A DNA stretch of 64,000 nt, taken from positions 29,172 to 93,171 of the IMG/VR virus record IMGVR_UViG_3300029822_000003; one strand, 5' to 3'. Position numbers and translations under genes: made by a program. Positions within the stretch are counted from its first letter, which is position 1. The number at the start of each line of letters is the position of its first letter. Origin of the DNA: a virus. The notes under the pieces were generated by a model that was not told the DNA's origin, searched no databases, and saw only the letters and a program-made list of their open reading frames with translations. Shown piece by piece: positions 28,410 to 38,437 of the stretch.

Positions 28410-30914
28410 TCATTATTATTAATCATCTATTTCTTTATGCAGCCAATTACTTTTATATCTTCCATTTTCTATACTCCAATTCATAATATCTTTATCTTCT
28501 GATATTTCTATACTTCCACATCTTTGCTCTAACATTTGTGCACATTCATCATGTTCTCTTTCTCTAGCTAAATTACATCCATGTACTTGTGATGAATTAA
28601 AGTTATTAATAAAAGCAATTTTGTCTCTATTGTAATCTATAAGAAATATTCTATCCTCATCCATCAATATAATATCTCTGCAATTAAGGGTGTGTTCTTT
28701 TCCATGTATATCTCTTATTAATATTTGTTCATCATCAAATATTTTTTTCTTCTCTTTTACTTTTACAATTCCAGTGCTAATTAATATTTCCATAAAAGTT
28801 TTATTTCTAATAATATCCTGTCCTACTACATACATATCTATCATACATTATCGCTCCCGTTTTATATTATCTATTTTCTTTTGCAAATCATATTTTTTAA
28901 TCAATTCTTTCCAAGGCATCCCGTCTGCTATATCATTATACATTTTTACCTCTATAAAAGCATTGTCAGCTAATACCGATAGTGCATATTTAATTCTTAA
29001 TTTATATTCTGGACACGTTTCTCTAAAATCAACGCTTTTGCAATTCTTAGCTTGACATTTTCCACCTGGAAACATCCACGGAGTTGAAAAGAATTCGTCA
29101 CAAGTATTACACGTTTTCTCTATTTTAAGTAATTTGTTTGGGTCTTCCATTTACATATCACTCCCAAGAATTTCATTATCAGTTCTTTCATTAAGAGCTT
29201 TAGCCACTATTCTAAAATACTCTTGTACATTTTCTTCTTCCATAATTTCTTCTTTTGTAGGTTTACGCCCTAGACATTTAATTTTTAATGGTATATTCAT
29301 TTATATATCACTCCTTCTTTATAACTTTTCCTATTGTTCCAGGTTTATATTTAATTACATCTATACCGCTATCTGTAGAGTTTTATTGTATAGATTCAAC
29401 GCATTGTCTTTGTTTATGTTCCAGCCTTTACAATCAAATAGTTCTAAGTATTTAGTGAAAGCTTTCTTTGATTTCAGTGTGAATATGCTATTAAATAAAG
29501 GCCATAATCCTTTCCATTCATCAATAAACCCGCAAGCAAATGGAGGATTTATCCAATAAGATTCATACCCTATTAGTTCATACAGATAAAGTACATCATT
29601 ATAGGTTAAATCTTTTCCCCAGTTTTCTTTTATCCATTGTAAAGTATGATGTTCTTCCATGCAATCAACTCCTTAATATTTAGATTTTCTTCTCTTTATT
29701 TCAAACTTTTTAGCTGTCTTATTTAAATATCTTTGTGTTTGAATGTACCTATATATTCTTTTAAATATGTTCAATTATAGTCAGCTCCTATTTATTATTA
29801 AGTACATTATAATATATTCCTACCGCTTTTAATTCTGCTACGTTGTCACATTTTAGTAGTATATTTTTATCTGCACCAATTTTTAATGAAGTTTCAATAG
29901 TTGAAAGTATGTCGTTAGGTGTTAGTTCTCCATCTTTATGCGATATTCTCAATGCTAAAATTTTTAATTCTTCATCTATGGTAATGTTATTCTCTGCTAA
30001 TTTTCTTCCACATTTAGGGCAATACTCAATTTCTCCTGAGGATTCACCGGCATAATAGGAATTTGATGTAAGGTAATACGTTATTATGCCTTTAATATAT
30101 TCTTTTTCTAAGTAAGTTTCAACGTCACAATCATCTATTATTGGCTCTCCTCTTGATGTATCTTCATCTATAATGTCTTTAAAATCGCAGTATTTACACA
30201 TTTAATCAACTCCTATCTATAATTCTTTTAGTCCGCGTTCTCGCCTTACTTTATTTATAGAAGTGCCTTTATATTCTTCTACACTTTCATTAAGCTTATT
30301 GGCTATTTCTAGTTCATCATTATAATTTAAAAGTCTCCACCTTTTTATGCACTTTGATTTTAAATATTCCTTTTTTACGTCTGGACCGATACTAGGATTA
30401 TTTTCTTTAGCTTTCATATACCATTCTAAAGAATCATTCTGTAGTCTAATTATAAGTGCATCTATGCTTTCAACATCTATGGCTATAATCTTACTTTCAC
30501 TATTAAGCAATTCAGCCTTTACTAGCATAATATCAGCTCCTTTTACATCCAACTATTGAATATTAATATAGAATCATCATCTAGTATAACAGGGTTTACA
30601 TCTAAAGCTTTGCTTAATTGAAATATGTCTACAAGATAATCCAATTCTATAGTTCCTACAAATACAATGTTATCTTCATCAATATAATTGAATATTTTGC
30701 CTTTCTTATGGAAATACGTATCTCTTGTCATTGATTCTTCAAAACCGTATTTATTTAACACAGGTCTTATGCTATCAAGTTTTTCTTTAGAATCTGCCAT
30801 GTATATTTCTACTTTCATTCTAATCTCTCCTTTAATCATATTAATATTTTACAAGAATTACAAGTTATCTTTTTCATATTTTTCAAAGAACTTTTTTAGC
30901 TTCGTTTCGGATAT

Positions 30915-30946
30915 TAAAATAAGGTAAGCACATTGCCTACCTTATT
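30915..30946 (-). terminator. Intrinsic terminator closing the ncRNA operon
   Basis: AATAAGGTAGGCA-ATG-TGCTTACCTTATT-TT. Confidence 0.65.
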
Positions 30947-31085
30947 AGGGGTTATCTATTGGGGGATGGGATATTTACAACCCTATCTGAGTTGTTGGCG
31001 GCCATATTTATCGGCTACAGCCAAACCATAAAAAATCAATAGAAAGGAGTTAAAAATATGAAATCTCAATCATTTATCTGTCTAG

Positions 31086-31173
31086 TGGTGGATAGAGTAG
31101 GACTTGAACCTACAGTGTTTTTTATGTAAGTGATTTACAGTCACCCTTCTTCAGCCAATTTGAATATCTATCC
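31086..31173 (-). tRNA. tRNA-Tyr (GTA) with encoded CCA
   Basis: Acceptor GGATAGA/TCTATCC-A-CCA; anticodon arm GGTGA-CTGTAAA-TCACT; long variable region; T arm GTAGG-TTCAAGT-CCTAC. Confidence 0.85.
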
Positions 31174-31714
31174 ATATAGTGGGGAATCGAACCCCAAAAA
31201 GAAATTGGTTACAAGCTTAAAACAAACCCTTGTTTTTGCTTATCTGGGGCGGTAAAGGATAGCCTTAATTATCGCTTATCTCCTACAAACATATCCTGAT
31301 TATGTTATATAGTTCTTATACGATTCCTTTATCCTTATTTTGTTTATATATTCAATTTAGCTTATCAGGTCACTAAATATCTTATATAAGTTTATCTTTT
31401 CATCTATGCCTAAAGACCGCTGGGACTAGATTTATTTTAATTCCCTCTAGTTACAGGAATTGTTAAGTCTCATGGTGGCGGTTGCATTTTTATTTTACGT
31501 GTCCTGCAACCACAGGCACAGCTTTTGAAATCATCTTATCTTTCGTCCTTTTGAATTATTGCACGCATTTGTGCTACGACTTTTACTTCTTCTATTACAT
31601 CGTCTAAAAGTCTAATTGGTGCTTTGTGTTCTGCAAGTATATCGCATATTTCTTCTGCTATTTCAGTAGTATCTATTGCATTCATTGTTTCTCACCTCAA
31701 ACTATTCTTTGTCT

Positions 31715-31948
31715 TTAGTGTTTCTGATAAAATATTTTTATGTTGTTGCATTGTATGCTTACTATTATGTGGCCTTTTCTGTCAACTAAGTTGTACATAA
31801 AAGGTACACCACTTTGTGATGTAAAAGGTATGATGAATCTTATTTCTTTGTCTTGGAAAGTATCCCCTACTGTGTATTCTTTTGCATCATCACATACTAT
31901 TTTTCTTATGTATCTTAATACTTCGGTACTATCTTCCATAGTTTTCAT
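31715..31948 (-). CDS. Hypothetical protein inside the ncRNA operon
   Basis: ORF with GGAGG RBS; two more short RBS-led ORFs flank it. Confidence 0.55.
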   Translation of the reverse strand: MKTMEDSTEVLRYIRKIVCDDAKEYTVGDTFQDKEIRFIIPFTSQSGVPFMYNLVDRKGHIIVSIQCNNIKIFYQKH

Positions 31949-32229
31949 TTTATACCTCCACTTTTTATCATATGTATTAGAGATTTAAACTGTTGATCTC
32001 ACTTATATAGTTATTTCTTCTTCATTTATTATTTCACCAGTAGTTAATTCAAGCTTAAAGTCGACGATTTTTTCACTAGTTTCTTTTAATTCATCAACTA
32101 ATGAATTAAATTTTTTTAGCAATAGTTCCAATTCAGCAGAGTTAGATTTTGTTATTATTCTTTTTATTTTAATCACCCCCTGTAACTTGTTTTTTTATCT
32201 TTAGTTTGTATTTATCTTTGCTTATGTAT

Positions 32230-32359
32230 TAGAGTGGGTGAAGATTTGCACTTCACATGTTACAACCAACACCATATATGCTACCTTGCCGCATAATTGC
32301 AAGTTCCCCACTTTCAACACGAGTTGTAGAAGCTGTTGGAAAGTGTAATTGCCCGCTCC
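32230..32359 (-). ncRNA. Enlarged tRNA-like RNA (about 130 nt)
   Basis: Acceptor-like GGAGCGG/CCACTCT stacked on T-like arm GTGAAG-TGCAAAT-CTTCAC; three internal stems. Confidence 0.55.
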
Positions 32360-32919
32360 TGGTATGCAATTACTTTAGTGTGCAACTGCATAAATCTCAC
32401 TTTACTCGTTGAAATATAATAATTGACTATATATAAAAATAAAGGGTGGTATAAGATTGCTTTTATAGTGTGCAACCTTAGTAAGTATCACTTCCAAAAT
32501 CACATTTCAGGAGGAACTGAAAATCAATCTTGATATTAATGCTGGTTGTATGCAGTTTCTTTTTTAGTGTGAAGCTGTAATAAATATCACTGTGAACAAA
32601 TTCAAATAAAAAATCAATAAAAGGAGTATGTTATAACGTGAACAACGCTAAAAGCTGTATGCCTTTCGGCTGGTGACCAGCTATTATTTATAGTGCTCCT
32701 GGTCAGTAACACTCATTAAGATTATAGGAGACTTTATACAAGTTTGAAATTTGCATTGTTATTGCTTTTATTAAGGCAATTTGCCTTTGGTGACCGTATT
32801 TATAGGCTACGGTCAAACCCTTTCTAAATTGGAAGATTAGAAAACGAACAAAATTAAAATCTACACAGTATCCCTGCTGTGATTACCACCAAAAATTAAT
32901 TATCTTATCTACAATTATT

Positions 32920-32948
32920 ATTGTACTCGATATTGATGAGTTATGCAA
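32920..32948 (-). promoter_or_regulatory. Sigma-A promoter of ncRNA operon with operator-like boxes
   Basis: TTGCAT-17-TACAAT; ATATCGAG boxes at 32925-32933 and 32952-32960. Confidence 0.7.
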
Positions 32949-33158: not shown

Positions 33159-33186
33159 ACTTCGCTAAAACATTATTTAGCGAACT
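33159..33186. other. 11-6-11 recombinase-type site abutting terL stop
   Basis: ACTTCGCTAAA-ACATTA-TTTAGCGAACT. Confidence 0.5.
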
Positions 33187-34727
33187 TAGTCTGGGATTGT
33201 GATGCTAATATTATTTGGTTTTCTAAACCTTTCACAGCCATAACGCAAACTGTCGCACGCATCATCATTGACCTTAACCGGTTTTGGCAGTCTTTCCCCT
33301 GTCTTCTTATCTTTCTCCCATTGATAGGATTCTAACTCATTCTTTAGTCCAATACAGCTTTTATCTACATACATACCACGCTCTTGTATCCATTCTATCC
33401 CTTCCATTACACTATTAGTTCCCTTAGTGCAAGCCCTAATTCCATTAATTCCTTGTCTTTTCATTTCTTCTATTGCTTCAGGTCTTGCATTGTCTGCGTA
33501 TATTTTTATGTCATTGTAAGCTGGGCCTATAGAATTTTGTATCTCCCTTTCTATGTACTTCCAGTTTATATCCCGCTCATATACTTTTTCTCTCTGAAAT
33601 ATTTCTAGGTTACATGCTTTTGCGTATTTTTTTTTAACCAAATAAAATAGTTGCATACTTTTTGATATATCTGAACCACTATCTATATATTTTTTTAACT
33701 TCTCAATTTCTTCTTTTACCCAAGGAAATATCTTTTTTAACTCATTTGCTATATCTATGGCTGTGAGCTTAGGCTTATACAATTCTTTTAGAATATATAA
33801 ATCATCATCCTTTATGCCTATCTGATGGAATGCTGTATGATGTTCCCATCCAAAATCCAATCCATAGGAAATATCGTCATACCAAGATAAATCTTTGTTG
33901 CAGTCTATTACTTCCCAATTTTCATATATAAGTTCACCAAGTACGCCCCAGTTTCCGTTGCACTGTACACCATATTTTCTAGGGTTGCGGAGTTTCATTT
34001 TATTTCTAAGTTTTTCATCTTTATACTGGCCATTATAATATTTGTTGTCTCTCCAAGTGGTTTTTAATATAAACGTGTTCTCTGGTTCCAATACATTATC
34101 TTTCCATATTTCCTCACTCATATCTATTCCATTTTGAAAGAAGTATGTACGAATCCAATGCGTTTTAAATATAGGGTTAAACATCATAAATACTTTTAAT
34201 TCCTTACCCCAGGCATGGTTGCCTGGCGGTGTGCCCCTTAATCTATCTTGTATATCTTCCAAGTCTTCTTGTGTAAAGTCTGTTACTTCTTCTAGTACAA
34301 GTACATTTACATTATCAATACCCTTCAGCTTTTCTGGATTATCATATCCGGTCATTCTTATAATAGAGCCACTAGCAAATTTAATATGTTTTAGAGTTCT
34401 GTTATAAGTAAAGTCTCTGCCCTCTACAAGACCATGGCTTGAATGAATATTTTTAAAATACTTTGTCATTATATTTAATATAGGAATTTCAACTGTGTTT
34501 TTTAATGTGGTTGCATACTTTCTAGCTATGAGAATATCAAAAGTAGAATGGCATACACACATTTCAATTAGTTTGGACCATATGCTGAATGACTTACTGG
34601 AACCTGTGCCCCCATAGAATATATTATATTTCTTAGGGATGTACCCAGGTTCAAACATAAATCTATATTTTTCGTTTACATAAGGCCGCCGCAGCCTAAT
34701 CTTCTTTTTTATCTTCATCAGTACCAC
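33186..34727 (-). CDS. terL: Terminase large subunit, PBSX family
   Basis: YGGTGSSKS Walker A, LVLEE Walker B, FNP, GLDFGW, DNARPE, DDACDSLRY. Confidence 0.93.
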   Translation of the reverse strand: MVLMKIKKKIRLRRPYVNEKYRFMFEPGYIPKKYNIFYGGTGSSKSFSIWSKLIEMCVCHSTFDILIARKYATTLKNTVEIPILNIMTKYFKNIHSSHGLVEGRDFTYNRTLKHIKFASGSIIRMTGYDNPEKLKGIDNVNVLVLEEVTDFTQEDLEDIQDRLRGTPPGNHAWGKELKVFMMFNPIFKTHWIRTYFFQNGIDMSEEIWKDNVLEPENTFILKTTWRDNKYYNGQYKDEKLRNKMKLRNPRKYGVQCNGNWGVLGELIYENWEVIDCNKDLSWYDDISYGLDFGWEHHTAFHQIGIKDDDLYILKELYKPKLTAIDIANELKKIFPWVKEEIEKLKKYIDSGSDISKSMQLFYLVKKKYAKACNLEIFQREKVYERDINWKYIEREIQNSIGPAYNDIKIYADNARPEAIEEMKRQGINGIRACTKGTNSVMEGIEWIQERGMYVDKSCIGLKNELESYQWEKDKKTGERLPKPVKVNDDACDSLRYGCERFRKPNNISITIPD

Positions 34728-35613
34728 CTTCTACAGCATATTCAATGTCATCGTCCAAGGTATCTGCACTCTTTTCTGCAAGTTCCATCTTCCTACGTTC
34801 AATATCAAGTTTAGCTTGTGTAGGCTTATCCAGTAGCCCTTGATATTTAGCTAAGAATTCTAGTGCGAACTTCTTATCCATAAGCTTTAATTTAATACCA
34901 TCTTTTCCCTCGCTTACTTCTGTGACAAGTGTCCCATCCACTTTAGATGAATCATTTAGTATTACATAGTTATCAATGTAATACCTTGGATTGCCGTCTT
35001 GGTCGAGTTTTTGTTCACCTGTTTTCTTATCTATTACCGGAATCTTCTTATGTCCATACTCCATGAAGTCGTTCATATCACTTAATGCTATATCTATATA
35101 CTTTTGCAAAAGGTCTTGTATAGATAACATAGCTCCTTTGAATTTATCAGCCTTTAAACGCTGTATTTCCGCTCTAATTCTATCATTGCCTATCAGTCTT
35201 GGTCCGTTGGCTGTCGCTGACATATAATCACATCCATAGGCTTTCTGGTATGCCTTTGTTGCATTAAAGCATTTTATATAATACATGCAGAATAATTTCT
35301 GTTTATCATTTAACTCTTTATTTTCAAGAACTTTTTCTACTGCTTTATCTATAACTTTATTCTCAATTTTTCCTTCTTCTTTTTCCTGTGCAACCTCTTT
35401 GTTTTGTTTCGCAACCGCTTTTTTCTGTTTCTTTGTACTGGTTGCAACCTTAAACCATTTATTTCCGTTATCTTTATCTCTTTTAGCCCAGCTTTTTATA
35501 GTCCCTAGTTTTACATTGTATTTATCCGCTAGTTCCTTGAAGCTTCCCTCTCCATGTTCATAAGCTGATCTTATTTGCTCTTTTATGTCTTCCATCCTTT
35601 TCACCTCTTGCAA
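34696..35613 (-). CDS. terS: Terminase small subunit with N-terminal HTH
   Basis: LNDKQKLFC..Y...FNATKAY.KAY; N-terminal LADKYNV..GTIKSW.KR. Confidence 0.88.
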   Translation of the reverse strand: MQEVKRMEDIKEQIRSAYEHGEGSFKELADKYNVKLGTIKSWAKRDKDNGNKWFKVATSTKKQKKAVAKQNKEVAQEKEEGKIENKVIDKAVEKVLENKELNDKQKLFCMYYIKCFNATKAYQKAYGCDYMSATANGPRLIGNDRIRAEIQRLKADKFKGAMLSIQDLLQKYIDIALSDMNDFMEYGHKKIPVIDKKTGEQKLDQDGNPRYYIDNYVILNDSSKVDGTLVTEVSEGKDGIKLKLMDKKFALEFLAKYQGLLDKPTQAKLDIERRKMELAEKSADTLDDDIEYAVEGGTDEDKKED

Positions 35614-37576: not shown

Positions 37577-37639
37577 ATTGTCCTCCTTTTACGGTTTTCT
37601 GGATTACCGTGAACCATATTTTTAATAAAAAGTTATTTT

Positions 37640-38389: not shown

Positions 38390-38437
38390 AATAGCCTCCT
38401 TAAATACGGTTTTTATGGCTGACCGCAAACCATATTT

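Follow-up and report, generated by a model that had tools for sequence, protein, structure and literature searches.

The 64,000-nt window analyzed here comprises the right two thirds of the 93,171-bp phage record IMGVR_UViG_3300029822_000003 in IMG/VR (G+C content 31%), and its minus strand carries nearly all of its genes. On this strand, the genes for TerS (34696-35613) and TerL (33186-34727) end at 33186 and are followed by an almost gene-free region of about 2.3 kb, in which the non-coding stretches 33185-32177 and 31535-30910 enclose three tiny open reading frames (ORFs). The region contains an array of tRNA-like units, namely a tRNA-Tyr and small H-type pseudoknots ending in NCCA, with spacers that contain short C-rich tracts. 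A first-pass annotation had pointed out four strings in the spacers that look like ribosome-binding sites (RBSs) of the plus strand, had read their complements as anti-Shine-Dalgarno (anti-SD) tracts and had proposed an array of small RNA (sRNA) guides. The four strings are present at 31030-31060, 32608-32630, 32508-32516 and 32723-32730, the first two being near-duplicates (94% identity over 17 nt, or 22 of 23 positions if one 1-nt indel is allowed), and the local genes are indeed encoded on the minus strand. The strings are the complement of C-rich tracts on a single predicted non-coding minus-strand transcript and not plus-strand RBSs. We tentatively interpret the tracts as exposed, generic anti-SD or C-rich motifs of a phage regulatory RNA.

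Homologous arrays were found through TerL searches in L004 together with L139, L140, L141, L137 and L181 (87-94% TerL identity) and in L010/L138 (71%). The array-bearing phages come from fermentation metagenomes. Two pattern scans of viral contigs returned mostly chance matches, in one scan among the matches listed; the other scan contained only three true units, in L181, L215 (L010 contig) and L223 (L004 contig), indicating that the array family is restricted to a small clade within that collection.

As judged from its sequence, the array is a self-contained transcription unit with a promoter near 32948 and, at its other boundary, an intrinsic terminator near 30918. The putative promoter is a sigma-A-like TTGCAT-17 nt-TACAAT on the minus strand (32920..32948) that was recognized by eye and passed over by the promoter-scan tool, since its first hexamer matches at only three of six bases; L010 has the consensus TTGACA-16-TATAAT at the equivalent relative position. 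At the other end, a terminal module on the minus strand (30908..30995; folding z -4.0) begins with a 5' hairpin, stays unpaired through UCCCAUCCCCC (30961-30971) and CCCC (30948-30951) and ends in a terminator hairpin (30918-30946) followed by a run of U. The same layout is present in L004 and L010, with terminator z values of -2.9 to -4.0 and an open stretch with C-runs of 20-50 nt across the three lineages. It is the array as a whole, not the single spacer, that possesses its own promoter and intrinsic terminator. We infer that the array is transcribed, that the transcript is processed and that its tracts pair with SD sequences, with whatever effect on translation this may have. Near the predicted transcript start, the minus strand also contains UGGUGGU (32885-32891), which is kept in the L004 group and complements the ACCACCA ends of several units.

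Pseudoknot-NCCA units and tRNA-Tyr

A strict pseudoknot scanner returned nine matches (eight units) on the sense strand of the window, eight of the matches within 30996-32821, and a single match on the antisense strand. In an alignment of eight units, the long stem of type 1 is 97.7% paired with compensatory changes at six of eight base pairs, compared to only 23-46% pairing in controls with a slid partner. In type 2, the short stem varies and complementarity is retained (AGUG/CACU, AGAG/CUCU, GUCUGU/GCAGAC, AUACCU/GGGUAU). By this covariation the units are real structures, H-type pseudoknots with a 3' strand that runs into NCCA. Their sequences and lengths (30-48 nt) differ and at least two types exist, so that near-identical repeated handles are absent, and in most modules a short hairpin lies directly 3' of the CCA.

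Starting from the promoter side, all units being on the minus strand, U1 (32788..32821) is a type-1 pseudoknot ending in ACCA and followed by a small hairpin, which was detected by the scanner and shows compensatory changes relative to L004 and L010. The scanner likewise detected U2 (32671..32713), which ends in ACCA and is followed by a hairpin with a GAAA loop, the type-2 units U4 (32447..32492, ending in UAUACCA) and U5 (32360..32401, 96% identical to L004 4891-4936) and two units ending in GCCACCA (31473..31520) and CCCA (31421..31461). The type-2 unit U3 (32543..32591; AGUG/CACU) was missed because of one C-A mismatch in its long stem; its homolog in L004 (5084-5129) is well formed. The last unit (30996..31027), of type 1 and ending in GCCA, was found by the scanner and by alignment, and three G-U pairs in it identify the minus strand as the functional one. 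The tRNA-Tyr (GUA anticodon, 55.2 bits) with encoded CCA is located at 31086..31173 on the same strand. In an Rfam search of the window, only the tRNA passed the gathering threshold and nothing relevant appeared up to an E value of 10; neither units nor spacers are covered by an Rfam family.

The tRNA-like units probably act as processing or stability punctuation through RNase P, or have a separate role. Bacterial RNase P cleaves pseudoknots ending in RCCA within loop 1, in dependence on the RCCA (PMC12710915). Such a cut would part the spacer from the pseudoknot, which makes it doubtful that the pseudoknot-CCA is a protective 3' handle of a preceding guide, as had been suggested.

Several further observations concern the structured part of the array. 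Adjoining the 5' end of the tRNA-Tyr, a hairpin and the T-arm-like GGGGUUCGAUUCCCC (31181-31247, minus strand) are not called as a tRNA, the sole Rfam signal being a weak tmRNA T-arm; the segment from 31247 to 31086 is 92.6% identical to L010 and thereby better conserved than any other part of the array. Copies of the type-1 pseudoknot sequence GGUUUGCGGU..AGCC..AAAAACCGU without CCA occur on the minus strand at 38406-38433 and 37591-37617, where they are located 3-4 nt 5' of the AAGGAGG of two ordinary genes and have no adjoining C-rich tract. The arrays are mosaic and the order of units differs among relatives. In L140 (3937-4310) and L137 (1868-2170), two pseudoknot units are separated by an inserted ORF of about 80 aa that starts with MKLNETSEMMNSKDYKERF. 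In L141 (6625-6845), the array is broken by a HEARO RNA (100 bits) with a downstream HNH/RuvC IscB-like ORF, and this insertion, which lies between the promoter and the first pseudoknot, looks like an IS200/IS605-type element. Outside the array-bearing phages, L006 (2498-2561 and 2927-2971; also L007 and L142; 58% TerL identity) has a single type-2 pseudoknot with the short stem AGAG/CUCU that ends in UUACCA and adjoins a near-threshold match to DUF3800-VIII RNA (37.1 vs 40.2 bits) as well as sequence resembling the abiF region described below.

The minus-strand segment 32230-32359, which the first-pass annotation had described as an enlarged tRNA-like RNA, is the short form of a variable region. 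In L004, L139 and L010, matching flanks (GGAG.. on the 5' side, T-arm and CYACUCU on the 3' side) surround 0.4-1 kb of structured non-coding sequence. At the start of this insert, directly after the last type-2 pseudoknot, the three phages contain an abiF RNA motif, which scores above the cut-off of 37 bits in L004 (5167-5203, 37.2 bits) and below it in L139 (4571-4607, 36.0 bits) and L010 (8421-8457, 34.7 bits). The Rfam search found no abiF motif in the window. RCd22, an RNA with two abiF motifs, neutralizes the AbiF toxin (bioRxiv 10.1101/2025.04.15.648962). Between 4600 and 6700 of L004, no sense-strand ORF exceeds 72 aa. An antitoxin motif that occurs as an orphan in a phage points to a decoy directed at AbiF. 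Its position beside the array in the relatives makes the locus a candidate RNA anti-defense island.

C-rich tracts in the spacers

A tract was defined as a pyrimidine run of 6 nt or more that includes three or more C and one of the cores CUCC, CCUC, UCCC, CCCC or CCCU. On the minus strand they follow a consensus of approximately YCUCCUU or UCCCCUU, and there is about one tract per spacer plus one or more ahead of the final terminator. As had been noted, the four tracts that correspond to the RBS-like strings lie close to pseudoknots. UCUCCU (32731-32726; TATAGGAG on the plus strand) is located 12 nt before U2 and is identical in L140, and its place is taken by CCCCUUUUU in L004 and L139. The tract CUCCUUUU (32626-32619), 27 nt before the next unit, forms a composite with the U-rich box AUUGAUUUUUUAU (32606..32626) that is present in two copies also in L004. 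UUCCUCCU (32516-32509), 16 nt before the next unit, is the core of the 12-mer GUUCCUCCUGAA and is situated in a predicted hairpin loop, while CUCCUUUCU (31049-31041), 13 nt before the next unit and again combined with AUUGAUUUUUUAU (31028..31049), is the complement of the string listed first by the annotation. Beyond these four, CCCUUU (32441..32446) immediately follows the CCA of U4, and the C-run UCCCAUCCCCC and CCCC lie between the last unit and the terminator, so the last C-rich stretch precedes a terminator and not a pseudoknot.

C-rich tracts are enriched in the spacers. In 1.35 kb of spacer sequence in the window, seven tracts were counted vs 1.2 expected (P 2.6e-4; P 8e-3 relative to other non-coding DNA), and four of the 34 CTCCT pentamers on the sense strand of the genome fall within these spacers, where 0.44 would be expected (P 1e-3). 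The related arrays contain eight tracts vs 0.86 expected in L010 (Poisson P 3.5e-6) and five vs 0.9 in L004 (P 2.4e-3). G-rich purine tracts of the array are found within the structured units and C-rich tracts in the spacers. The sense strand contains 60 copies of AAGGAG, to which CUCCUU is exactly complementary. The 3' tail of 16S rRNA contains the 11-mer CCTCCTTTCTA, and ACTCCTTTCTA (31050-31040, minus strand) is one of only two sense-strand matches to it with at most one mismatch in the 93-kb genome, the second falling within a coding frame. In most of the tracts, the initial C of CCUCC is missing and the likeness to the 16S tail ends with CUCCUU.

In alignable spacers, conservation is highest at the C-rich tract. 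All three lineages share GUUCCUCCUGAA without any change amid divergent flanks, in phages with TerL identities down to 71%. Before the last unit, all three lineages have UUUCAUA-N5-6-ACUCCUUUC, with ACUCCUUUC itself retained in L004 and L010. For the first four spacers of L010, no alignment to those of the window is possible, and each of them contains a tract of its own (UCCCCUU, UCUCCUU, UCCCCCUUU and UCUCCCC), which points to selection on the motif and not on a particular spacer sequence. In partition-function folding, the mean unpaired probability was 0.62 for 20 tracts vs 0.49 for the arrays overall, and the predicted folds leave the tracts largely single-stranded or place them in hairpin loops. 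The hairpin that presents UUCCUCCU has the stem UUUCAG/CUGAAA in the window and L004 and AUGUUC/GAACGU in L010, indicating that the loop itself is preserved.

Several tracts are accompanied 3-10 nt downstream by a second conserved box, the U-rich UUGAUUUUUU or UGAUUUUG. None of the explanations considered below accounts for this partner box. Its interpretation as a -35 element was dropped, as a -10 element is absent 17 nt further on. Pairing of the tracts with GGAG strings of neighboring pseudoknots was also dropped, since it comprises at most 4 bp and is not conserved.

Candidate functions of the tracts

In the explanation that we tentatively favor, each module would consist of the tRNA-Tyr or a small H-type pseudoknot-NCCA, usually a short hairpin, and a spacer rich in A/U in which a single C-rich tract is exposed. 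By base pairing with the G-rich SD region of mRNAs (AAGGAG, GGAGG), the tracts would reduce the initiation of translation. The polycistronic non-coding transcript would supply one such motif with each module and act as a multi-copy, generic anti-SD agent.

The more specific proposal of the first-pass annotation, that each spacer is a variable antisense guide, was not supported by the comparisons: The cores of the spacers are conserved across lineages and no extended complementarity was found. For phage targets, complementarity did not reach beyond the SD. For the best of six tracts, 5 of 30 flank shuffles paired equally well with the 236 phage start regions, and duplex energies of whole spacers with phage start regions showed no gain over shuffles. 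When all spacers were compared by blastn-short with the sense strand of the entire phage genome, the matches were limited to AT-rich 11-15-mers and two of SD level, one of 15 nt at about -27246 (93%, E 0.7) and one of 17 nt at 53144-53128 (94%, E 0.054). The complement of the longest motif had more than 120 matches in 185,579 species genomes, scattered over all phyla from archaea to Bacteroidota and thus uninformative about a target. What stands of the proposed anti-SD sRNA array is the recurrent, conserved and by prediction mostly unpaired anti-SD-like tract in the spacers, but not the target-specific guide.

A number of points weigh against the regulatory explanation as well. When only the flanks were shuffled around a fixed core, the six tracts paired no better than their controls with any of the 236 phage start regions. 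The gain in accessibility is modest and some tracts are predicted to be paired (0.26-0.48). Strongly SD-led genes of the phage itself would also be exposed to a generic anti-SD RNA, and RNase P cleavage at the next unit would leave the spacer with an unprotected 3' end that is open to 3' exonucleases. The Rfam search matched no known sRNA family such as RsaE. The comparison spans two to three lineages of one small clade, and among cultured phages no TerL exceeds 32% identity.

The strongest competitor, which we consider unlikely on balance but well worth weighing, is that the tracts are cis-acting elements for maturation or stability that function without SD pairing, as a recognition or stop signal for a ribonuclease, as binding sites for a host or phage protein with affinity for pyrimidine tracts (a CsrB-like protein sponge) or as boxA-like anti-terminators behind each hairpin. 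That every module has a single motif, and that its distance to the structured units varies, resembles repeated protein-binding motifs, the composite with UUGAUUUUUU or UGAUUUUG is left unaccounted for by anti-SD pairing, and target-specific complementarity is absent at the 236 phage start regions. The order of hairpin and pyrimidine box is also reminiscent of the boxB-boxA arrangement in rRNA leaders. However, no candidate protein or nuclease is known to prefer CUCCUU, a single anti-termination site would be enough for a single transcript, and the exact complementarity to the commonest form of the SD would be left as a coincidence.

Two other explanations appear quite doubtful to us, each to a similar degree. 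In the first, the tracts mimic the 3' tail of 16S rRNA and would divert, as decoys, a host nuclease or toxin from the ends of stable RNAs. Together with the neighboring acceptor mimics, an additional tRNA-Tyr and, in relatives, the abiF motif, they would make the locus an anti-defense RNA island. This is in line with ACUCCUUUCUA, which matches 10 of 11 positions of the 16S-tail 11-mer and is conserved in L010, with the abiF motif in the arrays of L004, L139 and L010, and with the sigma-A-like promoter, which suggests early expression. On the other side, the missing first C and the divergence past CUCCUU make most tracts fit better as complements of AAGGAG, the window itself lacks the abiF motif, and we could not name any defense nuclease of Bacillota that is known to target the 16S tail. 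In the second, the tracts have no function of their own and were inherited with duplicated modules or result from the elevated G+C content of a region of structured RNA. The array is indeed richer in C than the genome (17.1% vs 12.6%), some spacers are plainly duplicated and the comparison is limited to one small clade. Yet the cores are conserved amid diverging flanks, each of the non-homologous L010 spacers has its own tract, C-rich tracts are confined to spacers whereas G-rich ones are inside structured units, and the Poisson P values of the enrichment are as low as 3.5e-6.

It is very improbable that the strings are plus-strand RBSs of antisense micro-ORFs, an alternative raised by the first-pass annotation itself, whose geometry suits only one of the four sites: GGAG and ATG before the last unit (31043-31060) are spaced by 8, 6 and 8 nt in the window, L004 and L010 with differing linkers, as would be expected of a genuine start region, but the resulting ORFs of 23, 24 and 5 codons are unrelated and that of the window runs antisense through the tRNA, at the duplicate site only 1-3 nt separate GGAG from the ATG and the ORFs have 2 and 6 codons, no start codon is usably spaced from the CAGGAGGAA and TATAGGAG sites, the promoter scan found no plus-strand promoter-like site between 30569 and 31942, and the G-U pairs of the units indicate the minus strand as the one under selection for structure. 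A mirror-image reading of the locus as plus-strand leaders followed by SD sequences was dropped, as the G-U pairs turn into A-C mismatches.

The generic anti-SD explanation can be extended to a more speculative scenario, to which we assign a low probability. As a bacterial counterpart of precursors that link small RNAs to tRNAs, the array would use its acceptor-like pseudoknots as punctuation for RNase P and so free a battery of anti-SD RNAs early in infection, which would damp initiation on strongly SD-led host messages, and the same transcript would bear anti-defense decoys, namely the tRNA-Tyr and, in relatives, the abiF motif. Should the tracts act as anti-SD motifs, many copies of a translation-damping element would be produced in one early transcript whose pieces are cut or stabilized by stripped-down mimics of tRNA. 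The array would then represent a compact, RNA-only device for host takeover and a natural analog of engineered tRNA-guide arrays.

Comparison with known systems

In the literature we found no description of an array that combines pseudoknot-CCA units with C-rich tracts in this way, and its single properties recall different systems. With CRISPR-like and other guide arrays it shares the alternation of structured units and spacers. Unlike in these arrays, however, the units are inconstant, the spacers are conserved between phages and no target match was found.

Pseudoknotted mimics of the acceptor arm that end in RCCA are known from TYMV-type tRNA-like structures and from model substrates of RNase P, and like the units of the array they are H-type pseudoknots with a 3' strand that runs into NCCA. 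In contrast to them, the array units lack analogs of the T-, anticodon- and D-arms, many of them occur per DNA-phage transcript, and their CCA lies within the primary transcript, with a hairpin immediately 3' of it. The coupling of tRNA-like elements and regulatory RNA in one viral precursor has a parallel in the TMERs of murine gammaherpesvirus 68, in which a tRNA-like element is joined to pre-miRNA hairpins, so that the ends can be set by host enzymes of tRNA processing (PMC4337559). Bacterial sRNAs derived from tRNA spacers are likewise tRNA-linked. TMERs depend on eukaryotic pol III, RNase Z and Dicer, whereas the array has pseudoknots of 30-48 nt with encoded CCA and would likely be processed by RNase P.

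The closest likeness on the side of the tracts is to trans-acting sRNAs of Bacillota, namely RsaE/RoxS and the loops of S. aureus RNAIII, which have several short, unpaired C-rich motifs per RNA that are complementary to the SD (PMC5419742, PMC6158497). RoxS contains four C-rich regions that pair with G-rich target sequences (PMC5419742). The terminal module of the array, with its 5' hairpin, single-stranded C-runs and terminator, has the layout of a C-rich sRNA of Bacillota. The array differs from RsaE/RoxS in that no sequence or Rfam relation exists, that its motifs are distributed over a transcript of about 2 kb instead of about 100 nt, and that they are mostly CUCCUU instead of UCCC or CCCC. 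What is new compared to these systems is the arrayed layout of anti-SD motifs that is punctuated by tRNA-like pseudoknots. Whatever its function, the conserved module of pseudoknot-CCA, hairpin and C-rich tract represents a defined and testable new RNA architecture.

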